Shown here: piece by piece, positions 6,145 to 58,942 of the stretch | How positions within the stretch are numbered: position 1 is the stretch's first letter | How the letters are laid out: every line of letters begins with the position of its first letter | Assembly: GCA_001001705.1 (NCBI GenBank) | Contig: LCOG01000002.1 | Span: 20,056-84,055 of the forward strand | Origin: Parcubacteria group bacterium GW2011_GWA2_47_26 | Lineage (GTDB): Bacteria > Patescibacteriota > Patescibacteriia > GWA2-47-26 | Direction: 5' to 3' | DNA length: 64,000 nt | Position numbers and translations under genes: made by a program | Notes under the pieces: generated by a model | The model's input: the letters and a program-made list of their open reading frames with translations, nothing else | What the model was told of the DNA's origin: nothing | Databases searched by the model: none

Positions 6145-6262
6145 TCCCGTTAGAAGCCGCGGTCGCGTTATTATCTGGCACAATATTTATGCAGAGGGTC
6201 AATTTTACCAAAATAAATCTAACCGGCAGGGCGGAGAGACCGCAACCTGCTTCTCACGGGAT
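6144..6262. repeat. Family B hairpin element filling the intergenic junction and ending on the AT of the next start codon
   Basis: ATCCCGTTAGAAGCCGCGGTCGCG ... GAGACCGCAACCTGCTTCTCACGGGAT|G. Confidence 0.75.
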
Positions 6263-14217: not shown

Positions 14218-16340
14218 GCGCAGAAGTATTGTGCATGGCAATTAATTATCAACGCGAACTAAACGCCGAGCAGTTGCGTGTAGTCAATGACGGAAACGGT
14301 CCTTGTTTAGTTTTAGCCGGAGCTGGAACAGGCAAGACGCGGACCATTGTGTACCGCGTTGCTTATTTATTGGAACAAGGCATTGATCCGGGCAAGATTT
14401 TGTTGGTTACTTTTACCAATAAAGCCAGCCGCGAGATGTTAAGAAGAGTGGAAATTTTGCTTGGCCACACGCCCGAAGGTCTTTGGGGCGGAACTTTTCA
14501 TCATGTGGGCCATGCAATTTTGCGCCGTTATGGATCGCGCATCGGACTCGCGTCCGGTTTTACTATTTTAGATCAGGATGACAGCATGGAATTGCTAAAA
14601 TCAACTATGGCAGAGCAGGGCCTGTCCACTAAAAAAGATGATAAATCTTTTCTAAAACCCGAAGTATTAGATAACTTAATTAGCTTTTCTGTAAATAGCG
14701 CGCGCGCATTGCCAGAGCTTGTTGAGGAATGGATACCTAAACATGCACATCTAACGCCGGAAATTTTACGCCTCGCAAGCGCCTACGAGCAAAAAAAGCG
14801 CGAACGTAATGTTGTAAGTTTTGATGATTTGCTTTATTTCTGGCTATGCCTTTTGCGTGAGAGGCCCGAGGTGCGCGAGAGTCTAGGCGGTAAGTTTGAT
14901 TATATATTGATTGATGAATATCAGGATACAAATCGTTTGCAAGGTATGATCGTTGAAGAACTTGCTCGTCAAAGTGAAGGCGGTGGGGCTTGTGGTAAAA
15001 ACGTTCTTGTGGTTGGCGATGATGCCCAATCAATCTACGCCTTCCGTGCCGCGACCGTTGAAAATATTATGCGTTTTCCCGAGGTATTTCCCGGCGCAAA
15101 AATTTTCCGTCTTGAACAGAATTATCGCTCTACGCAAGCAATTCTTGATCTGGCGAACGCATGCATCGCTTGCAATCGCCGGCAATTTGAAAAGGAACTT
15201 AAAAGTGCTTGTCATCCTGAGCGAAGCGAAGGATCCCGGCCTAATCGAGAATCACGGGATTCTTCGGCCTCTGGCCTCAGAATGACAGACTATGAGGGCA
15301 CTAGGCCGGAGCTTATTGGGTGCGCTGACGCTACCCAAGAGGCTAGATTTATTGCGGGCAAGGTTTTGGAGTTTCACGACGAAGGCGAATCTCTCCTTGC
15401 AAGCGCTGTACTCTTCCGTGCGGCCTATCAAGCCATGCAGCTTGAACTAGAACTTCAAAAGCGAGGGGTGCCCTATGTTGTTCGGGGCGGTATTCGTTTT
15501 TTTGAACAAGCGCATATCAAAGACGTGGTGGCGTATCTAAAAGTGGTAGCGAATCCAACTGACGAGATTGCTTGGCAGCGTGTGCTAAAAATGGAAGAGG
15601 GAATTGGTGCAAAAACTGCCGCGGTGCTTGCGCAACGCATGATTCATAACTCCCCCCAACCCTCTCTTACCTTAAGAGGTGGTGATATAGTGAATATTCC
15701 TACCCAAAGAGCGCGGGGAAGTGAGGAGGGGTTACAAAAAGTTCTTGCCCGTATTGAAAAATTAAAATCTTTAGATAAGGTCTATAGAATGATTGATTAT
15801 TTATTAGAAGCATTTTACGAAAATTATGCCGAAGCAGTTTTTGAAAACGCGCGAGAGCGGCTTGAAGATTTAAGACAACTCGCGCTTTTTGCCAAAGAGT
15901 ACCAAGAGCTAGAACAATTTTTAGCTGATGCAACCCTTTCAGAAGGCTTTCGCGGGGAAAGAAAAGGGAACGTTTCTAATTTTGTCGAGCAAAATTTAGA
16001 GACGCTCCCTTTTCTTAATGAAGATCAAGAGCATCTAGTGCTCTCTACGATTCATCAAGCTAAAGGCTTGGAGTGGAAAAATGTTTTTGTGGTGGGTCTG
16101 ATTGATGGTCAATTTCCGCATTACAAATCTCACGGTAGCCGCGCAGAGCTCGAAGAAGAACGGCGTCTTTTTTATGTGGCAGTGACGCGCGCCAAAGAGC
16201 AGCTCTTTCTAACCTATCCCGTAACCAGTATGGGCTCGCTTGGCACAGCCGTGCACCAGCCGTCTTTATTTGTCCGCGAACTCAACCCGCATTTGTTTAA
16301 GACCATGCTGGATGACGAAGAAGTCGTCGTTGAAATATAA
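14214..16340 (+). CDS. uvrD: ATP-dependent DNA helicase UvrD/PcrA family (in-frame family A, E and F elements)
   Basis: Walker A AGAGTGKT, helicase motifs through VTRAKEQLFL. Confidence 0.9.
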   Translation: MSAEVLCMAINYQRELNAEQLRVVNDGNGPCLVLAGAGTGKTRTIVYRVAYLLEQGIDPGKILLVTFTNKASREMLRRVEILLGHTPEGLWGGTFHHVGHAILRRYGSRIGLASGFTILDQDDSMELLKSTMAEQGLSTKKDDKSFLKPEVLDNLISFSVNSARALPELVEEWIPKHAHLTPEILRLASAYEQKKRERNVVSFDDLLYFWLCLLRERPEVRESLGGKFDYILIDEYQDTNRLQGMIVEELARQSEGGGACGKNVLVVGDDAQSIYAFRAATVENIMRFPEVFPGAKIFRLEQNYRSTQAILDLANACIACNRRQFEKELKSACHPERSEGSRPNRESRDSSASGLRMTDYEGTRPELIGCADATQEARFIAGKVLEFHDEGESLLASAVLFRAAYQAMQLELELQKRGVPYVVRGGIRFFEQAHIKDVVAYLKVVANPTDEIAWQRVLKMEEGIGAKTAAVLAQRMIHNSPQPSLTLRGGDIVNIPTQRARGSEEGLQKVLARIEKLKSLDKVYRMIDYLLEAFYENYAEAVFENARERLEDLRQLALFAKEYQELEQFLADATLSEGFRGERKGNVSNFVEQNLETLPFLNEDQEHLVLSTIHQAKGLEWKNVFVVGLIDGQFPHYKSHGSRAELEEERRLFYVAVTRAKEQLFLTYPVTSMGSLGTAVHQPSLFVRELNPHLFKTMLDDEEVVVEI
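15211..15287. repeat. Family A element within uvrD (encodes HPERSEGS...)
   Basis: GTCATCCTGAGCGAAGCGAAGGATCCC...GGGATTCTTCGGCCTCTGGCCTCAGAATGAC. Confidence 0.8.
15647..15692. repeat. Family E single unit within uvrD
   Basis: CATAACTCCCCCCAACCCTCTCTTACCTTAAGAGGTGGTGATATAGTG. Confidence 0.6.
15958..16016. repeat. Family F element within uvrD
   Basis: GGAAAGAAAAGGGAACGTTTCTAATTTTGTCGAGCAAAATTTAGAGACGCTCCCTTTTCT. Confidence 0.75.
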
Positions 16341-16803: not shown

Positions 16804-16923
16804 TCCCGTTAGAAGCCGCGGTCGCGATACATTGGAGAGCTAAATATTATGCAAAAGGTCTATATTATAACAACAAACATTAACCAGCAGATCGGGAAGA
16901 CCGCGACCTGCTTCTAACGGGAT
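16804..16923. repeat. Family B element between the ArsR-family gene and nifS, ending on nifS ATG
   Basis: TCCCGTTAGAAGCCGCGGTCGCG ... GAAGACCGCGACCTGCTTCTAACGGGAT|G. Confidence 0.8.
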
Positions 16924-18331
16924 GAACGAGAAACGCACAGTATATCTTGATCATGCCGCGGCCACACCTCTTGATCCGCAAGTTAAAGAGGCTATGTTGC
17001 CATATCTGGGCGAACAATATGGCAACCCCTCGGCAATCTATGCGCCGGGGCGCATTGCTCGAGAAGCTTTGGATAATGCGCGCGAGACAGTAGCACAGGC
17101 TTTAAATTGCACCGCCGCCGAAATTATGTTTACCGGTAGCGGCACCGAGTCTGCTAATCTGGCCATTTTCGGCGTCGCACGAGGGTATCGTCGTGACCAA
17201 GTCACTGCCGCAGGCGCAACCCGTGACTTGGTCACAAAAGGCCACATCATCACCACCAACATTGAACATCATGCTGTTTTAAATTCCTGCAAAGCCCTTC
17301 AAAACGACGGTTTTGAAGTTACTTATTTGAAAGTAGATCATGACGGGCTTGTAACAGCCGAGCAATTTAAAGCCGCTATTCGGCCGGACACGATTTTAAT
17401 TTCCATCATGTACGCCAATAACGAGATTGGCACAATTGAGCCGATACATGAACTCACGCGCGCAATGCAAGAGCGCAAAAAAGAACTCGGACGCAAGCCA
17501 AATGACCCCCCATTTTTTCATACTGATGCCTGTCAGGCCGCGGGATATTTAGATATTGATGTGAAGAGCCTCGGGGTGGACCCCGTTAGAGGCAGGTCGC
17601 CCCAAGGTGACCGTAGCACTGCCTCTAGCGGGGTGGCCTCTAGCGGGGTGGATTTAATGACAATCAATGGAAGCAAGATTTATGGGCCCAAAGGCACTGG
17701 TGCTCTTTTTGTGCGCCGTGGCTTGAAACTGCAACCGCTAATTTATGGGGGCGGACAAGAAATGAAATTGCGCTCTGGAACAGAGAATGTGGCTGGTATT
17801 GTGGGGTTGGCCACGGCGCTTAAAATTGCGACGCAACTACGCGATAAAGAGGGGCAGCGCTTAATTGCACTGCGTGATCAACTGCTTACTGGCATTATGG
17901 ATCGCATTCCAAAGGTGGTATTAAATGGACACGCCACCAAACGTTTGCCGAACAATGTTGATGTGTCAATTTTAGACATTGAAGGCGAAGCCATGCTTTT
18001 GTATCTGGATGAGCATGGTATATATGTATCAACCGGCAGCGCTTGTGATTCCCAAGCTCTGGATCCCTCGCATGTGATTTTGGCTCTAGGCAAGCCCTAT
18101 GAATTCGCGCACGGCAGTATCCGGTTTACTTTGGGGCGCGCGACTAGCGCAGCAGATATTGATTATGTATTGGATGTCCTGTCGCAGATTGTAAGCACCC
18201 TGCGCAAAATATCGCCGGTGCGCATAGATGTGAATGCAACCGGTATAACTGCTAAGACCGCGTTTGTTGGGGACGGTCTGCCGCATTTCGTAAAACAGCA
18301 GAGTAATAGAGGAAAAAAGGACCGCCTCTAA
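16922..18331 (+). CDS. nifS: Cysteine desulfurase NifS/IscS (class V aminotransferase) with in-frame family D and C elements; stop codon lies inside a family F element
   Basis: PLP-binding region, TGSGTESANLAI, active-site Cys loop STGSACDS. Confidence 0.9.
   Translation: MNEKRTVYLDHAAATPLDPQVKEAMLPYLGEQYGNPSAIYAPGRIAREALDNARETVAQALNCTAAEIMFTGSGTESANLAIFGVARGYRRDQVTAAGATRDLVTKGHIITTNIEHHAVLNSCKALQNDGFEVTYLKVDHDGLVTAEQFKAAIRPDTILISIMYANNEIGTIEPIHELTRAMQERKKELGRKPNDPPFFHTDACQAAGYLDIDVKSLGVDPVRGRSPQGDRSTASSGVASSGVDLMTINGSKIYGPKGTGALFVRRGLKLQPLIYGGGQEMKLRSGTENVAGIVGLATALKIATQLRDKEGQRLIALRDQLLTGIMDRIPKVVLNGHATKRLPNNVDVSILDIEGEAMLLYLDEHGIYVSTGSACDSQALDPSHVILALGKPYEFAHGSIRFTLGRATSAADIDYVLDVLSQIVSTLRKISPVRIDVNATGITAKTAFVGDGLPHFVKQQSNRGKKDRL
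17192..17235. repeat. Family D element (GTGACCAAGTCAC doublet) within nifS
   Basis: GTGACCAAGTCACTGCCGCAGGCGCAACCCGTGACTTGGTCAC. Confidence 0.8.
17575..17657. repeat. Family C element within nifS (encodes VDPVRGRSPQGDRSTASSGVA)
   Basis: GTGGACCCCGTTAGAGGCAGGTCGCCCCAAGGTGACCGTAGCACTGCCTCTAGCGGGGTGGCC with duplicated terminal arm. Confidence 0.8.
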
Positions 18332-18369
18332 TTTTGCAGAGCAAAATTTAGAAGTGGTCCCTTTTTCCT
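18313..18369. repeat. Family F element containing the nifS stop codon and the iscU ORF 5' end
   Basis: GAAAAAAGGACCGCCTCTAATTTTGCAGAGCAAAATTTAGAAGTGGTCCCTTTTTCC. Confidence 0.8.
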
Positions 18370-19633: not shown

Positions 19634-20605
19634 ATGACAATAGGGGAGGCTTTGAAGTGGGGCATAAAAAAACTCACTGGCTCTGGGGTGGACCCCGTTA
19701 GAGGCAGGTCGCCTCAAGGTGACCGTAGCACCGCCTTTGGCGGGGCGGCCTCTAACGGGGTAGATTCTCCTGCGCTGGATGCGGAGGTTATTTTAGCGCA
19801 TGTGCTCGGTGTTCCCCGCGCCGAGCTCTATATCCACCCCTTGACCACTCTACTACCGGCAGAAGCGGCGACATATAAAATTTTGATCAAGCGGCGTTTT
19901 AAGCGCGAGCCCGTCGCCTATATTACGGGTCATAAAGAATTTTACGGCATGGATTTCATCGTGGACAAATCTACGCTTATTCCTCGACCGGAAACCGAAA
20001 TGCTCGTGGAGGAAGCGCTAAAGGCGGTTAAGGCTAGGAACACAAAGACATTGTGTGTTGTTGATGTTGGCACTGGTTCGGGTTGTATTATTGTATCCTT
20101 AACTAAAATATTAAACCAAATAAGCCGCCACAAGACCTTGCATTTTTTTGCCACAGAGATCTCACCGCAAGCTCTTAAAATAGCCAAGCTCAACGCCAAA
20201 CGCCATAGTCTTGCTGATAAAATAGTTTTTAGAAAAGGCTATTTGCTCAAACCGATCTTATCCAATCTAGAAAAAACGGTACCGCAATCAAGATTATTGA
20301 TTACGGCAAACTTGCCCTATTTGCCTACAGCCGAGTGGCGGCGCGCCATGGAAGACGTGCATTATGAACCGCGCCAAGCTCTGGATGGCGGTAAAGACGG
20401 ACTAGAATACTACCGGCATTTGTTTGAGCAATTAAAATCCTGGCGCGGCATTAAAAAATTTGCTAACGTGGCCGTGCTCGCTGAAATTGATCCGCATCAG
20501 GTTAATGAATTTACAACTCTGATAAAATCATTTTTCTCGCGAGCCAGTTTATCAATCAAAAAAGATCTGGCCAGCCTTGATCGAGTTGCGATCGCGGTAC
20601 TATGA
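19634..20605 (+). CDS. prmC: Release-factor glutamine methyltransferase PrmC/HemK (in-frame family C element)
   Basis: VVDVGTGSGCI SAM motif, NLPYLP (NPPY-type) motif. Confidence 0.8.
   Translation: MTIGEALKWGIKKLTGSGVDPVRGRSPQGDRSTAFGGAASNGVDSPALDAEVILAHVLGVPRAELYIHPLTTLLPAEAATYKILIKRRFKREPVAYITGHKEFYGMDFIVDKSTLIPRPETEMLVEEALKAVKARNTKTLCVVDVGTGSGCIIVSLTKILNQISRHKTLHFFATEISPQALKIAKLNAKRHSLADKIVFRKGYLLKPILSNLEKTVPQSRLLITANLPYLPTAEWRRAMEDVHYEPRQALDGGKDGLEYYRHLFEQLKSWRGIKKFANVAVLAEIDPHQVNEFTTLIKSFFSRASLSIKKDLASLDRVAIAVL
19687..19762. repeat. Family C element within prmC
   Basis: GGTGGACCCCGTTAGAGGCAGGTCGCCTCAAGGTGACCGTAGCACCGCCTTTGGCGGGGCGGCCTCTAACGGGGTAGA. Confidence 0.8.
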
Positions 20606-25472: not shown

Positions 25473-26807
25473 GTGAACACTATGCAAGATGAAATTTTAG
25501 TTAAAGGCACAGATGGGAAGTGGTATCTTCTGCAAGGGGAGGAGTTGGTGCCGTATGGGGCAGGTACGCAGGGACCAGATAAGCAGGCGGCAGGCGTGAA
25601 ACAAGAGTTGCCTAAAGGGGTGACAGAAGAGAGGCATAAAAAATTGGAAAAGGTGACCAAAGCGGTAGAGGAGCCACATGTGGCAAAAGAAATTTTCTTG
25701 CCAGCCGTAGCTACTCCGCCCCTTCCGGCTGTTTCTGCTCCCGCGCTTCGTGACTTGGTCACTGCCGCAGGCGCAACACGTGACCAAGTCACAGCTCCGG
25801 CCTATATTCCGCCGGAGTTGCCCGAATTAGTCGCGCCTGCTTTGGGGCCGGTAACACACGAAGGACATCCTTTATATAAGGAATTGCAGGAGCTTGTGGA
25901 TCAGGTGGTAAGTGAGAGCGCCGAAATAATTCGCGCTCAAGCGCCAGCTTGGGACGAAATTTTGCAAAAACGTTTCCGGTTCGTGATCTCGGCACGTTTG
26001 CGGGATATGCGGGACGCGGCAGAAACCAAAGCCTTGATATTGCGTGATCAGAAGATTGGTGGTTTAGGTTTGCGCGAGGCAGACGCGCAAAAGGTCACGG
26101 AGTTTACCGAGCGCGTTTTTCAAGAATTTCAAAAAAAGTGGCAAGAGTTTGAGGCAAAGCGCATTGAAGAATGGAAGCGCAAGAAGCGCGAAGAAGCGGC
26201 TCATAGCGAAGAAGTTTGCAAGAAAAAAGAAGAGCAGGAGATGGAGGAGAGATACGCCCGCCTTACAGGCGAGGTTGCAAAAGTGGCAGAGGTGGCAAAT
26301 GAGCCAAAGATTAAGGTACCCAAACCTCAAACCTCAAACCTCAAACCTCAAACAGCCCCAAATATTAAAGCTCAAAAGCCAAGGATAATAGAGCAATCCA
26401 GAACATCTGTCACTTCTGAAACATTTGCAACATCTGTGACTTTGCCGCGAAGCAGCAAAGTCACAGATGTCCGTACCCCGCCGAAACTCTTGGGACCGGT
26501 GGAGGAACTGCAAAGCATAAGCCCCCAAGATTTTAGACGGCTGGGCGCGCCTGGCGAGGCAACTGCAAAAATCAAGGCCAAAGTAGATTTTTTGGCGCAA
26601 GAATCATTTACAAAATACAGAAATGGAATCAAGGCTTGGCAAAGTTCGCCACTGCACAGACTGTATTTATTCATTAGCGGAATATCCTTACGGGAACGCA
26701 AGAGTATTGAGCAAGTTATAGGTGATTTACAGGTGCAAAACAAAGACACACTCACACCTGACGAATTTCATGCTATAATGGAGTTGAATAAACAATTGAG
26801 GTTTTAA
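25473..26807 (+). CDS. Hypothetical K/E-rich coiled-coil protein with PQTSNLK repeats
   Basis: Long ORF; contains an in-frame family D element and a 7-nt tandem repeat. Confidence 0.55.
   Translation: MNTMQDEILVKGTDGKWYLLQGEELVPYGAGTQGPDKQAAGVKQELPKGVTEERHKKLEKVTKAVEEPHVAKEIFLPAVATPPLPAVSAPALRDLVTAAGATRDQVTAPAYIPPELPELVAPALGPVTHEGHPLYKELQELVDQVVSESAEIIRAQAPAWDEILQKRFRFVISARLRDMRDAAETKALILRDQKIGGLGLREADAQKVTEFTERVFQEFQKKWQEFEAKRIEEWKRKKREEAAHSEEVCKKKEEQEMEERYARLTGEVAKVAEVANEPKIKVPKPQTSNLKPQTAPNIKAQKPRIIEQSRTSVTSETFATSVTLPRSSKVTDVRTPPKLLGPVEELQSISPQDFRRLGAPGEATAKIKAKVDFLAQESFTKYRNGIKAWQSSPLHRLYLFISGISLRERKSIEQVIGDLQVQNKDTLTPDEFHAIMELNKQLRF
25750..25791. repeat. Family D element within the 25473 gene
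   Basis: GTGACTTGGTCACTGCCGCAGGCGCAACACGTGACCAAGTCAC. Confidence 0.8.
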
Positions 26808-26816
26808 GGTATGCAA

Positions 26817-27020
26817 TCCCGTTAGAAGCCGCGGTCGTTGGTTTGTGGAGTAGATAATATTCATATGCAGAAAGGTCAAATGGTTTTAATAAATAACCTC
26901 GCAGGGCGGGCGACCGCGACCTGTCCCGTTAGAAGTGTTGTTCTAACGGGTAATCAATCAGGAGTCTGGGGAGTGTTCAGTATTATGGGCACTTCTAACG
27001 GGACCTGCTTCTAACGGGAT
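26817..27020. repeat. Family B element (expanded/composite) ending on the ATG of the PrgI-like gene
   Basis: ATCCCGTTAGAAGCCGCGGTCG ... GGCGACCGCGACCTGTCCCGTTAGAAGTGTTGTTCTAACGGG ... ACTTCTAACGGGACCTGCTTCTAACGGGAT|G. Confidence 0.75.
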
Positions 27021-35883: not shown

Positions 35884-37458
35884 TTATGGACATGGTCTGC
35901 TTTCCAGGCCTTTGATCAAATTTGTGGGATCCAGTAGTGACGGTGGTTTTGTAATTAGAAATTCTCGCGCACATTTGTTAGTGCCGATAGTACTCTGCCC
36001 CGGGGGGGGATTCCATCTAAAATTTCTTCGTGCCCGTCCTGGATAAGCTTCAAGGTGTAACATATCACAAAATGTGGCTTTTCCAAGAGTTTGTCCTTTA
36101 GTCACAGTGGCTCGCGCTCTTATACTGGATGGAACCGTTCCGCTATTTATCTCTCCGTATACTACCGTGATGTTGAGTTTTGGATGAAATACAAGTACAG
36201 CTACGCTTTGTCCCCCGCTGCATGGATAAAAATTATAAGTGTTAACAACCTCACCGCTGTCCAGCGCTACTACTTCGCCATCGCCTTGAGTATAAAGGTC
36301 AATCCCGGCGTGGCATCTCGCCCCTTGGGCACGGTCATCGCCCCAATTCCAAGAGATTTGTTGTAGACTGCCGGTCTTTATTGGGAGACATTGGTCCGTG
36401 ATGTTGTAGTTTGTAGCCCCGGTGGTCCATGTCCCAGTTTCTCGAATTTCCTCACCTGCTCCCGGGGGCTCAAGCTCTATCTTTTCTATTTGCTCTACTC
36501 GCAACGGCTGAAAAACCACCAAATCTGGATTTATAATCATCAAAATTATGTACGATCCCAAAACCAGTATAAGTCCAACCGAGGCATCCGCGATTTTGCG
36601 TTTGGCGTCGCTTATTTTATCCGGACTGCCGCCGGCGGTGAGCCATTTGAATCCGGCGTAAACAATCATTATTCCCGCGATTACCCCCACCACGGAAACC
36701 AAAAATTTATATACTGCGGCCAGGTATTGAGCGAGAAAATCAATGATCAGAAATTCTCTATCGCCTTCAGTTGTTCTAAATGGCACGGTAAAAGGTTGCA
36801 GTGTAACGAGCGGAATTTGCAAGCGGGGAAGAGCGATTTGAGCTGGGGGGAGTTCGGAGGTTGGAACGCATTGAGAGACAAATGTGCGTGTGGCCCGATG
36901 CCCCTCTTCTCTGATCTGACATCTAAACCCACTTGCGCAATCAGCATCTGTACCACACCCCTCACTTGCTGCTGTTAAAACACATCTCTCACTTTGACAT
37001 TGTAAGTTTGGCGAAGAAGAAGATACACATTGACTATTATTATTACAAGGGCATCCAATGGGCATGAACCCGTTGTGCCCCGGCCCTCTCGGCGCCATGA
37101 TGTCAGAAAAAGACATGCATGCATTGCGTGGCGAAACCCAAGCCTGACCCGCCGAGCATCGTCGATCGTTACAGTTTATAGTTTCAGCTGTTCCTTCGCC
37201 GCCTTGACATACGCGTAAACTCGTATTACATATTCCACCTCTTCCACAATCTGAATTACTTAAACATGCGCCCCCGCTATGAAAATATGCGGTTTGCATG
37301 CATTGCCTTGCGGCGAACTGGCAGAGATGGGGAGGGGCAAGACTAGCGCAATCGGAATCTTGGGTACAAGGTGTTGCTTGCGAGGTTAGCGGTAACATGA
37401 ATAATAGCAATGAAATAATGCTGAGCACTAAAAGCAATTGTTTTTGCGACCGTAACAT
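35884..37458 (-). CDS. Secreted Cys-rich protein with central TM hairpin (TrbC/VirB2-like) and C-terminal M23 (LytM) peptidase domain
   Basis: Signal peptide; repeated C-x-x-D-x-D-C motifs; two TM helices separated by a charged loop; M23 signatures HAGIDL...G.V.A...G.V and HLH (MLHLEAY). Confidence 0.7.
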   Translation of the reverse strand: MLRSQKQLLLVLSIISLLLFMLPLTSQATPCTQDSDCASLAPPHLCQFAARQCMQTAYFHSGGACLSNSDCGRGGICNTSLRVCQGGEGTAETINCNDRRCSAGQAWVSPRNACMSFSDIMAPRGPGHNGFMPIGCPCNNNSQCVSSSSPNLQCQSERCVLTAASEGCGTDADCASGFRCQIREEGHRATRTFVSQCVPTSELPPAQIALPRLQIPLVTLQPFTVPFRTTEGDREFLIIDFLAQYLAAVYKFLVSVVGVIAGIMIVYAGFKWLTAGGSPDKISDAKRKIADASVGLILVLGSYIILMIINPDLVVFQPLRVEQIEKIELEPPGAGEEIRETGTWTTGATNYNITDQCLPIKTGSLQQISWNWGDDRAQGARCHAGIDLYTQGDGEVVALDSGEVVNTYNFYPCSGGQSVAVLVFHPKLNITVVYGEINSGTVPSSIRARATVTKGQTLGKATFCDMLHLEAYPGRARRNFRWNPPPGQSTIGTNKCAREFLITKPPSLLDPTNLIKGLESRPCP

Positions 37459-37461
37459 ATT

Positions 37462-38163
37462 TTAGCGTAATAATTCCTGTATAGATTGGTTTACAGTATT
37501 TTGATCAATTGCTCCTGAAAATTTCCTCTCGCCAATGAAGAAATACGGCGTGGCGTCAACGCGCAAAAGTATGGCCTCGTTGAAGTTGCGCGCGACAAGA
37601 TCTTTGGTGCGTTCGGTTTTAAGGCAGTCTTCAAAGGTGGCTGTGTTTAAGCGAAGCTCCTGCGCTAGCGGGATAAAACTGGTTTCAGCTAATTCAGTTT
37701 GCCGTTCAAACAAAAGATCATGATATTCCCAGAATTTTCCTTGCTCCTCGGCGCATCGTGCGGCCTGCGCCGCTTTTTCCGCCAAAGGATGCAAACGCGT
37801 ATTCGGCAGATCTTTCCAAACTAATTTTACGCGGCCGCTGTACTGTTCAAGCACGCTTTTCAAAGTGGCCTCCACTTCCGCGCAAGAAGGACAGAAAAAA
37901 TCCCCGAACTCTACAATTGCAATAGCTGTGACCAAGTCACTTTCCGTTGTGGCTTGGTCACGGCCCGCGGGATCTCCGCGTACCGGATCAGTGGAGCGGA
38001 TAATGGGGCGGGAAGGCAGTGCGATCGTTGTGACCAAGTCACTTTCCGTTGTGACTTGGTCACGGTCGTCCGGCGGTATAAATGTATAATACGCCACAAT
38101 ACCAACAAAACCCGCCAAAAGTAGAGCGACAATTACGATAATGATGAAAGAAGGAGTACGCAT
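37462..38163 (-). CDS. dsbA: Membrane-anchored DsbA-like thiol:disulfide oxidoreductase (two in-frame family D elements)
   Basis: N-terminal TM, thioredoxin CPSC active site, DsbA-like helical insert. Confidence 0.7.
   Translation of the reverse strand: MRTPSFIIIVIVALLLAGFVGIVAYYTFIPPDDRDQVTTESDLVTTIALPSRPIIRSTDPVRGDPAGRDQATTESDLVTAIAIVEFGDFFCPSCAEVEATLKSVLEQYSGRVKLVWKDLPNTRLHPLAEKAAQAARCAEEQGKFWEYHDLLFERQTELAETSFIPLAQELRLNTATFEDCLKTERTKDLVARNFNEAILLRVDATPYFFIGERKFSGAIDQNTVNQSIQELLR
37928..37961. repeat. Family D variant within dsbA (copy 1)
   Basis: GTGACCAAGTCACTTTCCGTTGTGGCTTGGTCAC. Confidence 0.75.
38030..38063. repeat. Family D variant within dsbA (copy 2)
   Basis: GTGACCAAGTCACTTTCCGTTGTGACTTGGTCAC. 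Confidence 0.75.
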
Positions 38164-38187
38164 GTTGATTGGACCGTAGTCGGTAGT

Positions 38188-39405
38188 CTACCGTAAATTA
38201 ACCCTATACAACTGCCCGGAAATGCTGTCTGTAAAATAGAGAATCCGTTCGTCGTCAGATACAACAATATTATTGATGGTGTGATCTTCAGAAGGAATCG
38301 CGATTAAAGAGCGCTCGCCGGTGCGAAGATTTACGCGATAAAGATTGTCCGGGGTATTGCCGACTGCAGTCGGATACAAGCCGGCTCCGCGGGGAAGTTC
38401 AGTCGGTACGGCGCAATAGATTATTTCATCGGATCCAAAAGTGCATTTATCCACCCAAGTGTTAAGTCCGAGCGGGGTTTTGCCTTGCCCAATAGTGTCC
38501 GGCGTGGCCCCTGCAATCCAAAGCAAGGGTTTCCAATCCTCATCTCCGGAGGTAGCCGAGTAGAGTAGGCGCTCCCCGTCGGGCGAAAAGCGTCCGCGGA
38601 AACCAATGCCATTGGCGACCAAAGCGGGAAAATTTTCGCCTTGCTTTCCAACCATGAGTATTTCTTGTTCATTAAGCCCGCGCGGCGTACCCGTGCGCGA
38701 GAAGGCAATGATTTGGTCATTAGGCGACCAAGCTACCTGCACTTTATCAGCATTATTGCCCAAAGGTTCAATCGGCCTGGTACCCGAGCCGTCATTATTA
38801 GCGGTAGCCAGCCACCTGGAATCCTCATCAATACCAACAGACAAAAACGCCAAAGCCTCCGAGCGGGGAGAAAAATTAAATTGTTGCCAGTGGCTGGGAA
38901 GGGTCGTAGCCCGTTCAGTTTCAAAATTATATACGATATTTGATCCGTCAGGATATTCAAGCACAGCCTGATTGCGGTCCGGCGCCCAAGTAACATTGGA
39001 GACATTAAAGAACACGCGATCCGAAAGCGGCTCCAAAGTCCCATCAGGTCGGATGCGGTAGAACTTGCCGTCAGAACGATTGTAGTAGTTTACCGAGGAG
39101 CCGTCCGATGATATAGACGGCGTCAGTGTGGCAAAGGTGGTAAGCGCGGTGGTCTGCGTTAGTCCGCCTGTGGCAAGGGGTGAAGGCTGGAGTGTCGCGG
39201 CAGGTGTAACAACAGTTGGACGAGGTGGAGCAGGCAAGGCCGGAGGAAGCCCTACAGTAGGCGGCACAGCGGGCGGAACTGCTTCCGGTGCCGCCGGCGG
39301 CGCTATGATTGGTCTAAAAAAGAACCACCAAATGCCAAAGCCAATCGCGGTAGAGATAATTATAAAGCCTATGATGAGGATGATGCGTTTAATGCGTTCT
39401 TGCAT
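38188..39405 (-). CDS. Membrane-anchored TolB-like beta-propeller (PD40/WD40-like) protein with Pro/Ala-rich linker
   Basis: N-terminal TM, PAAPEAVPPAVPP linker, repeated SPDG/SPND beta-propeller blades. Confidence 0.5.
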   Translation of the reverse strand: MQERIKRIILIIGFIIISTAIGFGIWWFFFRPIIAPPAAPEAVPPAVPPTVGLPPALPAPPRPTVVTPAATLQPSPLATGGLTQTTALTTFATLTPSISSDGSSVNYYNRSDGKFYRIRPDGTLEPLSDRVFFNVSNVTWAPDRNQAVLEYPDGSNIVYNFETERATTLPSHWQQFNFSPRSEALAFLSVGIDEDSRWLATANNDGSGTRPIEPLGNNADKVQVAWSPNDQIIAFSRTGTPRGLNEQEILMVGKQGENFPALVANGIGFRGRFSPDGERLLYSATSGDEDWKPLLWIAGATPDTIGQGKTPLGLNTWVDKCTFGSDEIIYCAVPTELPRGAGLYPTAVGNTPDNLYRVNLRTGERSLIAIPSEDHTINNIVVSDDERILYFTDSISGQLYRVNLR

Positions 39406-39443
39406 ATTCGTCTCTATTATATTTTAACCGATTTAAGACGAAA

Positions 39444-40124
39444 TTAGAAATTACAGTCTATGCCAATTTTATAACGAGTAATATATTTGAGCGTTCCACT
39501 TACAGAAATGTCGGATTCACACAAAACAGCGATTGAAGCGGCGATAACCAAAATAGTTCCTAGGACAAATAAACCAATTCCCATAATCAATAAAAAGCGG
39601 TACAATTGCGGCGGTAATTTTATAAGTCCAAATAATTCTTTGGGTTTGTCAGCGCCTTGAAATGATTGCAAGATAGGGAGGCGTACGCCTTCTCCGCCAT
39701 GAGCCGATTCTGTTTGTGGTTTTTTTGTGCCAAGTTCTTTATGAATTGCTTTAGCTTCGCTGGAAGCGGCAACTTCTTCTCGTCTGGCTGCTAAACGAGC
39801 GGCCAGCTCTAGTGGAACGCGTATCACTTTGATTATTATGCGAGCAAGAGCAAAAAGCAAACGAAAGACAATTCCGATCCAAGGAATAGCGCCCAAGAGT
39901 GTCCCGCAACCTTTAGCCAATAGCTCGCCCTTTTTCATTATGCCGACCGAGACAGAGGGAGTCTCGGCAGTTTCCCTTTCATGCGCGCGTTTAGCTTGCT
40001 CTTCCAGGGCCTTGGCTCGTTTTTTTTTCATCTGCTGGCTTTCTTTTTCAAATTCAACTTGCCGATCCTGCTCATCCACCGATTCTTGTTCGTCATTCTC
40101 TGAAACTTGTAGAATCCAGAACAT
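39444..40124 (-). CDS. Hypothetical membrane protein with acidic N-terminus
   Basis: ORF with several hydrophobic helices. Confidence 0.5.
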   Translation of the reverse strand: MFWILQVSENDEQESVDEQDRQVEFEKESQQMKKKRAKALEEQAKRAHERETAETPSVSVGIMKKGELLAKGCGTLLGAIPWIGIVFRLLFALARIIIKVIRVPLELAARLAARREEVAASSEAKAIHKELGTKKPQTESAHGGEGVRLPILQSFQGADKPKELFGLIKLPPQLYRFLLIMGIGLFVLGTILVIAASIAVLCESDISVSGTLKYITRYKIGIDCNF

Positions 40125-40140
40125 AGTTTTTATTTAGTTC

Positions 40141-40228
40141 TCCCCCTTAGGTTAAGGGGGAGTGAAAGGGGGTTACGAGACGCTCATAACCCTCCCCAGC
40201 CCTCCCTTAACTTAAGGGAGGGAGAAAG
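40141..40228. repeat. Family E double unit, intergenic upstream of htpX
   Basis: TCCCCCTTAGGTTAAGGGGGAGTGAAAGGGGGTTACGAG...CATAACCCTCCCCAGCCCTCCCTTAACTTAAGGGAGGGAG. Confidence 0.7.
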
Positions 40229-40234
40229 ATTCAC

Positions 40235-41119
40235 CTATGCCATCGATCTCAACACCTTTATTCTATCTCCAATCGGCGGATGCGTGGAAAAAAGAGTAGT
40301 CAGCCATTTGCGCGTGCCACCAAAAGGATTGGCAATATAAAGATGGGCCGTAGCTTCATTGGCGCGGGCAAGCGGCCGGTTTTCACGGCCAATTTTTTCT
40401 AGCGCACGCGCCAGTCCTTCCGGAAAGCGCGTCATAAGCGCACCAGACGCGTCCGCCAGATATTCGCGTCGGCGCGAAACAGCAAATTGTATAAGCTGCG
40501 CGATAAGCGGCGCTAAAATCATGAGAACAATGCCGACTACTAGTAGCATGGGGTGTAGACCACGATCCCGATCATCCCGGCGGCCGCCAAAGAGGTGCGC
40601 ACGGAGCATCCAATTTGATAGCAGGGCGATGATTCCCACAAGCACAATCACCATCGTCATAATGCGAATGTCATAATTTTTTATGTGTGACAGCTCATGG
40701 GCAAGTACCCCTTCCAATTCCTCATTTTCCAGTTTTTCAATTGCGCCGGTGGTAACCGCGATTGAGGCATGTTTGGGATCTCGGCCAGTCGCAAAAGCGT
40801 TTATCGCGGGGTCTTGGATTATATGCAGGTGCGGCATGGGCATTCCCTGTGAAATGCAAAGATTTTCTATCATACGCCAAAGATACGCGTTTTGTTCTTT
40901 GTTTATTTGCTTGGCTCCCGAAACCGCAAGTGCGAGCTTATCGCCCTTATAGTATGAAATGAGCGCCATGAAAAACGATATAAAAGCCGCAAATACAAGC
41001 CCGCCCGAGCCATGACCGTATAGATAATCGTAAAGATACCCAAGGCCGAGCACTACGGCGACAAAGATTATAATAAGCGCCCATGTCCTGCGCTTATTGG
41101 CCGTGATTTGATTGTACAT
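40235..41119 (-). CDS. htpX: Zinc metalloprotease HtpX (M48 family)
   Basis: HELSH motif, TM topology. Confidence 0.85.
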   Translation of the reverse strand: MYNQITANKRRTWALIIIFVAVVLGLGYLYDYLYGHGSGGLVFAAFISFFMALISYYKGDKLALAVSGAKQINKEQNAYLWRMIENLCISQGMPMPHLHIIQDPAINAFATGRDPKHASIAVTTGAIEKLENEELEGVLAHELSHIKNYDIRIMTMVIVLVGIIALLSNWMLRAHLFGGRRDDRDRGLHPMLLVVGIVLMILAPLIAQLIQFAVSRRREYLADASGALMTRFPEGLARALEKIGRENRPLARANEATAHLYIANPFGGTRKWLTTLFSTHPPIGDRIKVLRSMA

Positions 41120-41204
41120 ACCTGTTTTGAATCACTAAGCGAATCAAACTAATTTTGTTCGAATGATTCGTTTATCATTAGTGCGAATTCGCTTAGCGAT
41201 CAAT

Positions 41205-41762: not shown

Positions 41763-41835
41763 ATGTTTGATAGTTGTTAAGTTTATGCATATATTGTACA
41801 ATAATATACCTAATAAACGCAACCACAACTTTAAT

Positions 41836-44218: not shown

Positions 44219-45544
44219 ATGATTACTCTATTTATCTTTCTCGCCGTTCTATCTGTCCTTGTTTTTGTCCACGAATTTGGACATTTTTTTGTGGCAAAAA
44301 AGGCCCGATTGCGTGTTGATGAGTTTGGCATAGGTTTTCCTCCGCGGCTTATTGGAATCCGTAAAAAAAATGTCATCCTGAGGGAGTCCCGCGCCTGCGG
44401 GACGACGAAGGATACCGCACATAAAAGAACGGGATTCTTCACTGCGTTCAGAATGACGAATTGGGAGGTTGTTTGGGGCCACCCCGTTAGAGGTAAGACG
44501 CCAGAGGCGTCTGCCGATGCCCTCGGGCATCGGACCTCTAACGGGGTTGACCCGCACGCGGGCGGAACGCTTTATTCTATCAACCTGTTTCCTTTCGGCG
44601 GTTTTGTGAGAATCAAGGGAGAGTCTGGAAATGAGCGACTGGATCAGGATAGTTTTGCCAGCCGCGGCGCCGGAGTCAGAATTATGATTGCCGCGGCCGG
44701 AGTATTGATGAACGCGCTTTTGGCAGTGGTGCTCATTGCCGCGGGTTATAGACTAGGCTTTCCCCAAGCTATCTCGGATCAACCGTCAAAGTACGCGCAA
44801 ATCTCTGATCAGCATATTGAAGTCATGGGAGTCTTGCCAGATAGTCCCGCGGCGCAATCCGGTCTTAATGTTGGCGATCGTATTTTGGCAGTCGGTGTAG
44901 CGTCAGAGACAGCCGCTTTGCGTGAGCTTCAGAACTCCGAGGACTTTCGCAATGTTACAAAGGAGTTAGTCGGAGAGTCGGTAACGCTTGTTGTTGAATC
45001 TGATAAAGTGCGGCGAGAAATTCAAGTGACCCCTAAAATTTTAGAGCAAACTGGCAAGGCCGGAATAGGCGTGGCTATCGTTGATGCCGCAATAGTCCGC
45101 TATCCTTTATGGGTGGCATTGCCCAAAGCTTTTGAAACCGTGGGGATTTTAGCGAAAACGATTGTCGTAGCTTTTGCCGATATTGTCCGCGATGCTCTGC
45201 TTGGTCGGCCAGTTACGGCTGAACTGGCTGGTCCGGTTGGTATTGCCGTACTCACTGGTCAGGCCGCACGCATGGGTTTTGTATTTTTATTGCAATTTAT
45301 TGCGATCCTGTCCATTAACTTGGCCATTCTTAATGTTCTGCCGATTCCCGCGCTGGATGGCGGCCGCATCCTGTTTATTCTGATTGAAAAGCTAAGGCGT
45401 CGTCCTGTCGCGGTAAAAGTGGAAATGATGATTCAGCAGATCAGTTTTGTTTTGCTTCTGCTCCTGATTATTTTTGTGACCTATCGCGATCTCGGCCGCT
45501 ACGGCGGACGAATTACTGAATTTTTTAAGAACATGGTACAATAG
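44219..45544 (+). CDS. rseP: RseP-like site-2 protease (M50) with PDZ domain; adjacent in-frame family A and family C elements inside the first loop
   Basis: HEFGHF zinc motif, PDZ GLNVGDRILAVG, LDGG motif. Confidence 0.9.
   Translation: MITLFIFLAVLSVLVFVHEFGHFFVAKKARLRVDEFGIGFPPRLIGIRKKNVILRESRACGTTKDTAHKRTGFFTAFRMTNWEVVWGHPVRGKTPEASADALGHRTSNGVDPHAGGTLYSINLFPFGGFVRIKGESGNERLDQDSFASRGAGVRIMIAAAGVLMNALLAVVLIAAGYRLGFPQAISDQPSKYAQISDQHIEVMGVLPDSPAAQSGLNVGDRILAVGVASETAALRELQNSEDFRNVTKELVGESVTLVVESDKVRREIQVTPKILEQTGKAGIGVAIVDAAIVRYPLWVALPKAFETVGILAKTIVVAFADIVRDALLGRPVTAELAGPVGIAVLTGQAARMGFVFLLQFIAILSINLAILNVLPIPALDGGRILFILIEKLRRRPVAVKVEMMIQQISFVLLLLLIIFVTYRDLGRYGGRITEFFKNMVQ
44372..44457. repeat. 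Family A element within rseP (GAGGAGTCCCGC subfamily)
   Basis: GTCATCCTGAGGGAGTCCCGCGCCTGCGGGACGACGAAGGAT...GGGATTCTTCACTGCGTTCAGAATGAC. Confidence 0.8.
44478..44550. repeat. Family C-like element within rseP, directly after the family A copy
   Basis: CCACCCCGTTAGAGGTAAGACGCCAGAGGCGTCTGCCGATGCCCTCGGGCATCGGACCTCTAACGGGGTTGACC. Confidence 0.7.
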
Positions 45545-55666: not shown

Positions 55667-57967
55667 CTATTTTTTCAGGTGGGGCATTGTGAAAGATATA
55701 ACGTCAGCGCCTCTTAGTATGTACGCGATTTTCTGCCCTTCGTTTATCGCAAAGTCTTTGAGGTTAGTGAAAGTTTGGCTTGTATATTGCGCTTTTAGTG
55801 TGCCATTATCTTTGTTAAAAACAACGAGTCGATTTCCGCTCTGGTTTAATATGTAAAGATATTGTGAGGCTTCGTTAGTCCACAGTTTCGTGGCTTGCGT
55901 AAGCACCGGGTCAATATTTTTAAGCGCAAAATTTGTTTTTAGACCTTTGCGAAATTCTGTTACATTGCCTGATTCATCAAGAACATAGGCTGTGCCGTCC
56001 ACCGTCAGCGCCAAAGCAGTGTTAATTGCGGTTCTATCTTTTATCCAGGCCGCGCCGGAGTTAAAACCCTGCGCCATGGGCTCGTACTTATAAATCTGAT
56101 TCTCACTCGGGTGCAATGTATAAAGCCGACGATTGTATATGGTCGCATCGCGCGCTCCACTGCGTAGTGTTCTAGGTTCACCTAGCTTATTCTCTGCGTA
56201 ATTATAAATATAAGCTCTGTCACTGTTAATTAATAGGAGTGCGTTACGCTGGGGATGAGCAAGCATTACGTTCAATGCGGTTATATTTTCTGGTGTAAAT
56301 TTTTGTGTTACATTATTTTGCGACCAGACTAACGCATTTGTGCTATAAGCAAAAAGCGCATTATCTTTCAAAAAAATCCCTTTGGCCTCTGGCAGTAGCT
56401 CGCGAAGATCAAGTACTGTTGTTGGATTTTCTATAACGATAATGTGGCGCAGCCGTTCTTCTACGCCCTGCAAGGCAGCAACCAACATGCTGGTTTCGTT
56501 TTCGTCTGCCGCTGATTTTAAATAACGCAAAGGAATATTTGCCGTTACTTGTCTTTTAAACGCGGATAAATTTTGCAAGCGCGCTTTTGCTTCTTCAATT
56601 TGCAAGCGCGCTTGTTCCTCGTTATTGTAAATTAGTGATGCGCTCGCCGTATCTATTAGGGTTTGTATGCCCGTAATCTCGGTTTGCAGTTGATTTTCTG
56701 CCGATCTTATTATCCCTCTGCGGTTGGCAAAAAGCACGCTCTCGCTAAAAACGAAAATTAGGGTAAGAAGGGCAATGAAGATTATTTTGCTTTTAAGCGA
56801 AAGGCCGTTGAATTTATTGGCTAGATAGTTTACTTTTGTTCTGAAAAGAAAGAGCAGTTTCTGTTTGAGCAGTTTCATGTCTGTAGCGCGCGCAAACCGC
56901 GCCAAAATTTTCTGGCGAAAACTTGTGTTGGCAATTGAAACACGTGTCCTTTGTATAATCTGCGCCGCCTTTTGCGGGTATTTGGCAAGGCGGATAAAAT
57001 ACGAAGATATTGTTCTATGTTTTAAGGGTGTCGTTGGAATAGGTGGAGCCGTTGTAGCTATGGCTTTACGCGTCTCTTTAATTGGAATGGCTATTGTGTT
57101 TTTAATAGTCTTTAATTTATTCCCGAATTTATTATTAAAGTGATCAAAAAAAACTGTCAAGGTTTTCTGGGTTTGATGTACAGAGGCTTGTATTGATTGT
57201 AGAAATGGTTTTAAAAGCGGCGGCGAGAGCATTTCTTCAGTGCGAGCTTCGGTTTTAAGCAGAGTAGCGATAGATGACCCCGTTGATTCAGTTGGGCGCA
57301 GAACTTGCGGTTTTGCCTCCAATAAAACAGCCCGGAAAATTGGCGGCTGTACATTCCGCGTTTCAATGCTTCGCCTAATAGAGGCGAGTTTATTTTCGGA
57401 ACTGCGTGAACGCGCGATCTCTTTTAAGTCGTTGGATTTTAAAAGGGGAGACAGATGTTTGGAAACCACAAGCAGATAAGCATGCGGCGCCAAAACTCCA
57501 TTATGAAAATTGCTGAAATGAAGCGGCCCGCTTGCCCCCATTTCTCCAAAATTGCTGATTGCATTGCCGCTGACGTGGAGTACGGCTATCTCGCCGGAGC
57601 TCGTGAAAAACAATTGTGTTCCCGAAACGATGCCAAGACTGGCATGGATGCGCGGCAGGTCGTGGGCTCGTTCTTTAATTTTATTTTCAAAAATGGCAAG
57701 TTTTTTTTCAAAAAATTGTTCGGCTTGTGTACGATCTACTGGAATATACTCAAAAGCCGTTGCCAGACGCAAAGCGTAGTCAAAGAGATCGTTGGCCGCT
57801 TCGCGATCTTGTGAGGATAGTGCCTCCAGCTCGGCGTCGTTGAAACCGAAAAGTCCAAAGAATTGAGTCTCCGTTGAGAATTTTCCGCGGCGCACTACCG
57901 ACGTCCACGCCGAGAAGGCGCGATGGTGTATTGTGGTCTCAATGTGGATAGTTAATCTTTGGTTCAT
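55667..57967 (-). CDS. Hypothetical bitopic membrane protein (766 aa)
   Basis: Long ORF with central TM; start codon abuts a family B element. Confidence 0.5.
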   Translation of the reverse strand: MNQRLTIHIETTIHHRAFSAWTSVVRRGKFSTETQFFGLFGFNDAELEALSSQDREAANDLFDYALRLATAFEYIPVDRTQAEQFFEKKLAIFENKIKERAHDLPRIHASLGIVSGTQLFFTSSGEIAVLHVSGNAISNFGEMGASGPLHFSNFHNGVLAPHAYLLVVSKHLSPLLKSNDLKEIARSRSSENKLASIRRSIETRNVQPPIFRAVLLEAKPQVLRPTESTGSSIATLLKTEARTEEMLSPPLLKPFLQSIQASVHQTQKTLTVFFDHFNNKFGNKLKTIKNTIAIPIKETRKAIATTAPPIPTTPLKHRTISSYFIRLAKYPQKAAQIIQRTRVSIANTSFRQKILARFARATDMKLLKQKLLFLFRTKVNYLANKFNGLSLKSKIIFIALLTLIFVFSESVLFANRRGIIRSAENQLQTEITGIQTLIDTASASLIYNNEEQARLQIEEAKARLQNLSAFKRQVTANIPLRYLKSAADENETSMLVAALQGVEERLRHIIVIENPTTVLDLRELLPEAKGIFLKDNALFAYSTNALVWSQNNVTQKFTPENITALNVMLAHPQRNALLLINSDRAYIYNYAENKLGEPRTLRSGARDATIYNRRLYTLHPSENQIYKYEPMAQGFNSGAAWIKDRTAINTALALTVDGTAYVLDESGNVTEFRKGLKTNFALKNIDPVLTQATKLWTNEASQYLYILNQSGNRLVVFNKDNGTLKAQYTSQTFTNLKDFAINEGQKIAYILRGADVISFTMPHLKK

Positions 57968-58075
57968 CCCGTTAGAAGTTTAAGAATAATTTTCTTTTAA
58001 GTACCCGCTAGACGTCAGTCGGCTTCGCCTACTGTTTTTCGTATACGAATGTCGTGCTTAAACTTCTAACGGGAT
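57966..58075. repeat. Family B-like divergent element abutting the start codon of the minus-strand 766-aa gene
   Basis: CAT|CCCGTTAGAAGTT ... CTTAAACTTCTAACGGGAT; reverse complement reads CTTCTAACGGGATGAAC exactly as at nifS. Confidence 0.6.
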
Positions 58076-58781: not shown

Positions 58782-58933
58782 GTCATTCTGAGGAGTCCCG
58801 CAGGCGCGGGACGACGAAGAATTTCGCACGAATCCCGTTAGAGATCGCGGACGCAGTCCGCGTCCTATCTCTAAACGGGACGAATGTGCGGAATCTCGCA
58901 TACGCGAGAGATCCTTCACTGCGTTCAGGATGA
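58782..58933. repeat. Composite element: family A termini enclosing a CCGTTAGAG...CTCTAAACGG hairpin (family C-like)
   Basis: GTCATTCTGAGGAGTCCCGCAGGCGCGGGACGACGAAGAAT...CCCGTTAGAGATCGCGGACGCAGTCCGCGTCCTATCTCTAAACGGGACG...GATCCTTCACTGCGTTCAGGATGAC. Confidence 0.7.
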
Positions 58934-58942
58934 CTACTAATT

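Follow-up and report, generated by a model that had tools for sequence, protein, structure and literature searches.

The nifS gene of Parcubacteria group bacterium GW2011_GWA2_47_26 carries a short palindrome within its reading frame, which raises two questions: what this palindrome is, and whether it is related to similar palindromes that end on start codons in the same DNA. We addressed them in a stretch of 64,000 nt (contig LCOG01000002.1, forward strand, positions 20,056 to 84,055), hereafter called the window. A first-pass annotation had distinguished an in-frame family C, with copies in nifS, prmC and rseP and a further copy nested in another repeat, from a family B lying between genes or at start codons, and had placed both in one superfamily. 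The nifS feature is very probably a copy of a non-autonomous miniature inverted-repeat transposable element (MITE) from a superfamily that behaves like the Rickettsia palindromic elements (RPEs). Nine element copies were found in the window, ranging in size from 48 to 119 nt, with one composite (B3) of 203 nt.

The palindrome in nifS

The nifS product is a cysteine desulfurase (Pfam: Aminotran_5). The locus reads ..CTCGGGG TGGA (CCCCGTTAGAGGCAGGTCGCCCCAAGGTGACCGTAGCACTGCCTCTAGCGGGGTGGCCTCTAGCGGGG) TGGA TTTAATG.., where the brackets enclose a 68-nt element with inverted termini of 12-13 nt, flanked by a perfect 4-bp target-site duplication (TSD). The gene thus gained 72 nt, or 24 codons. The corresponding residues were missing from all 59 of the 59 closest NifS homologues (58-75% identity), every one of which reads L-GVDLMT, and the alignment of the window NifS with a cysteine desulfurase from the PDB broke into two blocks, both claiming the duplicated GVD. 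As read from the nifS sequence, the junctions are spanned by the peptides LGVDPVR and GDRSTASSGVASSGVDLMTINGSK. An AlphaFold model of NifS (61 sequences) had a mean predicted local distance difference test score (pLDDT) of 86.6; residues 221-240 formed a coil with a pLDDT of about 53, so that the insert is modelled as a disordered loop. A protein of 'Parcubacteria group bacterium GW2011_GWC2_45_7' shares 100% identity with the window NifS, and the same nifS allele was found in independent ENA (ANAN16) and JGI assemblies; the insertion is therefore no artefact of one assembly.

The nifS copy had also been described as having a duplicated right arm. A perfect tandem repeat of GCCTCTAGCGGGGTG is indeed present; however, it fills the columns occupied by hairpin 2 in other members of the subfamily, here called C1, with no change in length (alignment A3), and thus corresponds to a local rearrangement or homogenisation, not to an added arm.

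A second in-frame palindrome (CGTGACCAAGTCAC..GTGACTTGGTCACA) was observed in nifS at 17191-17236, as well as at 25748-25793 and 47782-47827. In NifS it covers residues ~90-105 (RRDQVTAAGATRDLVT; pLDDT ~61), a loop in which other NifS orthologues of the candidate phyla radiation (CPR) hold different repeat-derived peptides.

Empty and occupied alleles of rsmH

A C1 copy was also found in rsmH of a Nomurabacteria genome (L012). RsmH homologues with the 25 additional residues were 100%, 86% and 83% identical, and homologues without them were 100% and 99.6% identical outside the site. At the nucleotide level, an empty allele (L192) differed from the occupied one by 2 mismatches in ~186 nt of flank. 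The empty site reads GAGAATATTGATGG (short form GAATATTGATGG) and the occupied site GAGAATATTGA(T-CCCG...CGGG-A)TTGATGG (short form GAATATTGA(T..71 nt..A)TTGATGG), the difference being a 71-nt element plus a duplicated TTGA. This allele pair is direct evidence of insertion. Occupancy among RsmH orthologues was patchy, and a plausible reason is that a tolerated TTGA site was hit repeatedly.

About 40% of RsmH orthologues carried some insertion before IDGIIFDLG. The same surface loops of RsmH and NifS held different repeat families in different CPR lineages, and such loops act as hot-spots that gather insertions.

The superfamily in other genomes

We scanned one genome per species (596 Gb) with the pattern CCCGTTAGA-N41..101-TCTAACGGG and obtained at least 120 loci. 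The genome loci among the matches listed, together with the window copies, make up the 137 distinct elements described here; the 9-nt terminal core that they share is imposed by the search pattern, whose 18 specified bases would be expected to give several hundred chance hits in 596 Gb. Most of the loci among the matches listed came from Patescibacteria (Saccharibacteria, Nomura-, Kerfeld-, Kaiser- and Uhr-bacteria, Paceibacterota), and about 30 from Omnitrophota, Planctomycetota, Desulfobacterota and others. Viral contigs contained 17 matching loci, which were convincing only in part.

The ends of the superfamily read YCCCGTTAGA(nnn)...(nnn)TCTAACGGGR. The bases immediately outside CCCG...CGGG (positions -1/+1) were complementary (C/G or T/A) in 131 of the 137 elements listed, and a perfect 4-bp TSD flanked 76 of them, versus 8.9 (maximum 16) when partners were shuffled; these elements are thus not random matches. 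Among them, the duplicated tetramer was TNNA: TGAA/TTCA, TAAA/TTTA, TTGA/TCAA or TGGA/TCCA. Members of the superfamily therefore insert at TNNA and duplicate those 4 bp. A 6-bp TSD was ruled out, since positions -6/+1 agreed in only 68 of the 137, against the 131 complementary at -1/+1. In the window, three of the nine copies had perfect 4-bp direct repeats and two others matched at three of four positions. Interiors were highly diverse across the listed elements. Thirteen of the 137 lay inside open reading frames (ORFs), and 12 of these 13 added a multiple of 3 nt. The occurrence of the same termini in Patescibacteria, Omnitrophota, Planctomycetota and Desulfobacterota implies either a widespread transposase of unknown type or frequent horizontal spread. 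In the literature on the motif or on MITEs of CPR taxa, we found no description of elements with these ends.

Two further arrangements were observed among these loci. In the first (L118, 4972-5120), CCCGTTAGA and TCTAACGGG termini surround a complete tRNA-Thr(CGU) gene, followed by a partial second tRNA copy with this terminus at its end; cargo capture is one possible origin, coincidence another. In the second (L038, 2167-5033), two inverted copies of one element, with their flanks inverted, surround a 2.7-kb segment, an arrangement that resembles a composite transposon. The segment encodes a 686-aa protein whose hydrophobic N-terminal stretch resembles, by eye, a signal peptide; no transposase features were evident in it by eye, no domain search having been run.

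C1 copies and their compatibility with coding

A scan of metagenomes with the exact pattern of hairpin 1 recovered 51 C1 loci, representing 40 distinct insertions, mainly from the Rifle and Hainich aquifers. Of the 40 copies, 30 measured 71 nt and 7 measured 68 nt. TSDs were perfect in 25 of the 40 (3.8 in shuffles) and matched at three of four positions in 11. Element length plus 4 was divisible by 3 in 38 of the 40 copies, and 30 of 39 lay within ORFs, in either orientation and in two frames. The C1 consensus is stop-free in four of six frames, the closed frames holding the TAG and TAA of the termini. According to orientation and frame, the copies read ..DPVRSRSPQGDRST..AASNGVD.., ..DPVRSRPLEHESATVTLGRPASNGID.. 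or ..PLEAGRPKVTVAL..LLTG..; that the same DNA is read as three peptides places conservation at the DNA level and not at the peptide level.

These features outline how C1 may persist in genes. C1 keeps about 17-20 nt of each B end around a short, GC-rich interior that forms two hairpins; together with its duplication it measures 72 or 75 nt, and this length, combined with the lack of stops in four of six frames, means that insertion into a gene keeps the frame. The product would be a loop of 24-25 residues (..DPVR...SNGVD..), and insertions would survive where the protein tolerates such a loop at its surface. The multiple-of-3 length and the absence of stops argue that the insert is translated rather than removed; taken with the structure model, they suggest a loop that is both translated and tolerated.

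On two groundwater contigs (L151, 1350-1418, and L165), the ORF of a gene for a class-1 peptide-chain release factor (prfA) contained a C1 copy, which makes this a further essential gene of translation reached by the element.

Relation between the B and C elements

The positions of the window copies are given in Table 1. Four B elements and an 80-nt element nested in one of them carry the ends TCCCGTTAGAAG...CTTCTAACGGGA. The proposed membership of B and C in one superfamily is borne out by the consensus of 39 metagenomic C1 copies, which matched the right end of B2 at 19 of 19 positions and the left ends of B1-B3 at 15 of 15. Read inward, the B ends are TCCCGTTAGAAGCCGCGGTCGCG and TCCCGTTAGAAGCAGGTCGCGGTC, with an extra AGGT on one arm; the C1 ends are CCCCGTTAGAGGCCGCC and CCCCGTTAGAGGCAGGTCGCC, with the same 4-nt asymmetry (extra AGGT/ACCT on one arm). 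The one-mismatch likeness of the B and C termini is thus present in the sequence and extends well past the 11-12-nt motif on which it had been based. The termini are also enriched: CCCCGTTAGAGG and its complement, with at most one mismatch, occurred 7 times in the window versus 0.11 expected in shuffled sequence, and CCCGTTAGAAG 16 times versus 0.95.

The mismatch itself does not separate the lineages. Most metagenomic C1 copies end in the B-type AGAAG/CTTCT, and the AGAGG/CCTCT of the window C1 copies is a compensated local variant (columns 11/64 of alignment A3). Many CPR genomes hold B-type elements with these ends (alignment A1), and C1 is a short-interior relative of B specifically.

The elements grouped as family C were all found in the hosts reported, whose identity is backed by Pfam (PrmC_N plus a methyltransferase domain for prmC, Peptidase_M50 plus PDZ for rseP), with the nested copy in the hairpin loop of a GTCATTCTGAGG...CAGGATGAC element (58782-58934). 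They do not, however, form one family. Homology over the full length was limited to the nifS and prmC copies, and the rseP and nested elements, like B4 and the 80-nt element Bn, had only ~12-13 nt of each terminus in common with the others. On this comparison, 'family C' is a mixture of at least three unrelated interiors. The rseP element forms part of a 68-residue stretch without counterpart in solved RseP structures; no TSD was recognisable in its flanks (GCCA/TTGA).

Table 1. Element copies and associated repeats in the window
Feature	Position	Strand	Description
B1 element	6145..6261	+	117 nt; last base is the A of the downstream gene's ATG
B2 element	16804..16922	+	119 nt; ends on the A of the nifS ATG
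C1 element in nifS	17581..17648	+	68 nt; 13-14-bp terminal stem; internal hairpin GGTCGCC/GGTGACC; in-frame peptide PVRGRSPQGDRSTASSGVASSG
Left TSD copy, nifS	17577..17580	+	TGGA, 4 bp
Right TSD copy, nifS	17649..17652	+	TGGA, 4 bp
Tandem repeat in nifS copy	17621..17650	+	perfect 15-nt repeat GCCTCTAGCGGGGTG x2 (17621-17635, 17636-17650); replaces the family's hairpin 2
C1 element in prmC	19693..19760	+	N-terminal region; 68 nt; 91% identity to nifS copy; flanks TGGA/TAGA
B3 element	26817..27019	+	terminates on ATG; flanks TGCAA/TGCAA; second element nested inside
Bn element	26924..27003	+	80 nt, in right arm of B3; same termini; perfect CCTG/CCTG duplication
C2 element in rseP	44482..44546	+	65 nt (65 + 4 = 69); same termini, other hairpins (AAGACGCC...GGCGTCT, GCCGATGCC...GGCATCGG); peptide PVRGKTPEASADALGHRTSNG
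B4 element	57967..58074	+	108 nt; interior unrelated; first base pairs with the A of the ATG of minus-strand gene 55667-57967; flanks TTCA/TTGA
C3 element, nested	58833..58880	+	48 nt; perfect CGAA/CGAA TSD at 58829-58832 and 58881-58884

These comparisons also bear on whether the B/C similarity or the insert could be due to chance, to low complexity, or to a native coding loop under selection for its peptide. The motif originally recognised as shared comprises only 11-12 nt, and the insert is in frame and stop-free, as a native loop would be. On the other hand, the insert is missing from orthologues and the termini are enriched over shuffled sequence; the reading of the same DNA as three peptides, the 19/19 and 15/15 matches and the empty and occupied rsmH alleles refute this explanation, to which we assign practically no chance.

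Start-codon docking

An ORF of at least 60 codons started exactly on the terminal base of the element in 59 of the 137 listed elements (43%; ATG in 48, GTG in 11), versus 0.9% per side at nearby control positions. The contrast drawn earlier between a coding and a start-codon habit was thus recovered, with all four of the four window B copies on a start codon and C1 mostly within ORFs at multiple-of-3 lengths. B-type elements were oriented with the ACCTGC arm beside the ATG in a ratio of 12:3. A promoter scan of B2 gave no plus-strand hit above background.

The terminal A or G of a B element, joined to a duplicated TG.., rebuilds ATG or GTG; for an insertion at A|TGAA|T, the last A of the element plus the duplicated TGAA restores ATGAA. 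This offers a simple reason for such insertions to be harmless in genomes with almost no intergenic space. B-type elements, whose interiors are AT-rich and contain stops, persist only between genes, typically at start codons of the A|TGAA type. Because only stop-free insertions of a multiple of 3 can persist in genes, survival is the simplest account of why some elements are coding and others intergenic, and a different insertion preference is unneeded.

Fold and covariation

C1 and C2 fold into the same architecture, a 13-14-bp terminal stem and two hairpins, with DNA z-scores of -3.2 to -9.7; many short, GC-rich members elsewhere shared this architecture with other hairpin sequences. In the alignment of 39 C1 copies, 97.8% of the cells paired and 11 pairs varied on both sides, a result reached in none of 500 shuffles. 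Hairpin 2 was hypervariable yet complementary (one pair was GC in 14 copies, UA in 14, CG in 5 and AU in 3), and the terminal pair was CG in 20 copies and UA in 18. Hairpin 1 was uninformative, because the search pattern dictates its sequence. Covariation of the stems suggests a role in mobility for a folded single strand or a cruciform.

Stable folds of this kind, together with 11 doubly varying pairs and four Watson-Crick types in a single pair, could also be those of a structured functional nucleic acid (a regulatory RNA, a ribozyme, or an intervening sequence cut from mRNA) kept for its three-way junction and not selfish DNA, and the higher conservation of same-site copies than of host flanks and the orientation bias of B-type elements towards the downstream gene would fit such a role. 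However, at the gathering score of Rfam 15 the window contained only tRNAs, and no element matched a family even at E <= 1. C1 occurs in ORFs in either orientation, which means that conservation does not follow one RNA strand; its multiple-of-3 length and stop-free frames would be needless if the segment were excised; the TSDs and the rsmH allele pair mark a DNA insertion, and RsmH occupancy is patchy. We regard a functional RNA as very improbable.

Short palindromes with covarying hairpins, and the fact that no DDE transposase was found, also bring to mind elements of the REP/REPIN type or IS200/IS605-type hairpin elements, which a Y1 (HUH) transposase such as RAYT mobilises in single-stranded form. 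REPINs are short hairpin palindromes whose stems covary, and the present elements resemble REPINs and RAYT-associated REPs in being short, hairpin-forming repeats with compensatory changes in their stems. Such systems leave no TSD, in contrast to the perfect 4-bp duplications at 76 of the 137 listed elements and 25 of the 40 C1 copies and to the TTGA duplicated relative to the empty rsmH site. REPs are also extragenic, lack ends of the terminal inverted repeat (TIR) type and are tied to a RAYT gene, none of which applies here: the present elements have true TIRs, many copies are intragenic, and we found in the loci neither a conserved REP head of the GTAG type nor a RAYT gene, although this last test is a weak one. 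A mechanism of this type seems extremely improbable.

Evidence for and against a MITE

The elements are small, dispersed and without a transposase ORF, with terminal inverted repeats and TSDs of fixed length, and they are polymorphic for insertion. Two of the window copies (C3 and Bn) are nested insertions with perfect TSDs, CGAA/CGAA and CCTG/CCTG, respectively. The enzyme that moves them would presumably be a DDE-type transposase acting in trans, its identity being inferred.

Several observations weigh against this interpretation. In 1.3 Mb of flanking DNA we found neither an autonomous element nor a transposase with these termini, and a Pfam scan revealed no transposase among the ten otherwise uncharacterised ORFs of the window. 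Orphan termini that might form pairs 400-6000 bp apart, with or without a TSD and with up to 1 mismatch, were sought in the window and in every locus; the search returned chance pairs only. When 606 long ORFs from the loci were compared all against all, only housekeeping clusters and no candidate transposase appeared; the largest cluster, of release factors, arose because of the prmC neighbourhood and the C1 copies inside prfA. In several copies, those in rseP, B1 and B2 among them, no TSD can be recognised, and translation of the insert is a deduction. Compensatory covariation as strong as that of hairpin 2 and the terminal pair is not expected for a plain relic of a DDE transposon. Finally, copies at the same site in diverged orthologues were 86-100% identical versus 63-86% for their flanks, part of this excess stemming from how the copies were selected. 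The excess may come from selection or gene conversion; repeated insertion is at least as likely as purifying selection.

A bolder proposal, which we consider rather unlikely, is that the superfamily is more than junk: its three-way-junction fold would itself be under selection, and an enzyme encoded elsewhere would mobilise the elements by way of a single-strand or cruciform intermediate whose structure it recognises. B elements would then be portable 5' cassettes from which hundreds of genes in several phyla obtain their start codon's first base and perhaps a promoter, and C1 a standing source of surface loops in essential proteins of ultra-small bacteria.

Comparison with known systems

Among known systems, the MITE interpretation finds its closest behavioural parallel in the RPEs. 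As far as they are treated in PMC10969869, these elements (Ogata et al. 2000) are ~100-150 bp long, confined to Rickettsia and relatives, and occur as several families per genome, as do the present elements; like C1, they are hairpin-forming palindromes inserted in frame in unrelated housekeeping genes of a small-genome bacterium, with a tolerated peptide. C1 likewise lies in frame in protein genes, with a peptide predicted to be tolerated. By contrast, C1 is 68-71 nt long and occurs in Patescibacteria, within a superfamily that extends over several phyla, and the present evidence includes clear TSDs of 4 bp, a pair of empty and occupied alleles, and a sister lineage that docks on start codons. 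The host is a Parcubacteria metagenome-assembled genome, and C1 matches RPEs in behaviour; we do not claim membership of the RPEs.

Bacterial MITEs and small repeats (Correia/CREE, ERIC, RUP, BOX, Nezha, cyanobacterial small dispersed repeats) are alike in small size, absence of an ORF, TIRs, TSDs and high copy number, as well as in nesting within other repeats and in occasional intragenic in-frame copies. Unlike them, the present elements have no identified parent insertion sequence (IS), share the same (search-imposed) 9-nt core in at least four phyla with unrelated interiors, include a subfamily of near-uniform multiple-of-3 insertion length (38/40), and sit on a start codon in 43% of the listed copies.

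Duplications of 4 bp and CC(C)-initial ends are found in the IS1380 family and the piggyBac superfamily, which are named alongside each other, and also in IS5 and IS701; piggyBac targets TTAA and has the TIR CCCTAGAAAG. The present elements share with IS1380/piggyBac a 4-bp TSD with T...A ends and termini with CCC followed by TAGAA-like bases, a likeness we offer as a lead. They differ from piggyBac in a TNNA target that is not strictly TTAA and in an additional Y/R base, complementary at the two ends, that separates the TSD from CCC, and no IS1380/piggyBac-type transposase was found near the copies. Integron attC sites (5'-RYYYAAC...GTTRRRY-3') mark the 3' ends of cassettes that are arrayed beside an integrase; they were rejected as candidates, given that polarity here is reversed (GTTAGA on the 5' side, TCTAAC on the 3' side, outside the CCC/GGG clamp) and that the copies form no arrays but are found inside genes and at start codons.

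CPR bacteria have genomes of ~1 Mb and are usually called streamlined, with little mobile DNA. In the present case, mobile palindromes have recently inserted into essential genes, namely those for cysteine desulfurase, release-factor methylase, site-2 protease and RsmH. As these differ between near-identical strains, they provide a natural marker for strain-level population dynamics. They also distort CPR protein alignments and gene calls, where they produce spurious 'lineage-specific insertions' and wrongly placed start codons, and offer a second, independent system beside the RPEs for how proteins absorb random loop insertions.

Other repeats and genes in the window

Palindromes of the GAAAAAGGGACCGCCTCTAATTTTGC..GCAAAATTTAGAAGTGGTCCCTTTTTC family were present in seven copies (11038, 15959, 18311, 33854, 34376, 34718 and 55594), one of which (18312-18367) spans the nifS stop and the nifU start, the others lying inside genes; the family had a weak, sub-threshold Rfam match, to a miRNA model only. 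The GTCATCCTGAGCGAAGCGAAGGATC...CTCAGGATGAC family comprised 11 window copies (3257-58934), none seen to be flanked by a 4-bp repeat of the kind that marks the CCCGTTAGA superfamily. It was in frame in a UvrD-like helicase (15211-15286, peptide ..HPERSEGS..) and in rseP (44372-44457). The GTCATCCTGAG family, considered as an element of the same mechanism, was set aside: it shows no comparable 4-bp flanking repeat and is not obviously moved likewise.

Tandem 9-nt repeats (GCAGATTAA x6) and their near-complement were found 15 kb apart (47509-47575 and 62745-62798), both in ORFs. The run of plus-strand genes is broken by a minus-strand block (35884-41954) that encodes a T4SS-pilin domain protein, a DsbA-like thioredoxin, a PD40 repeat protein, an M48 peptidase and LemA.

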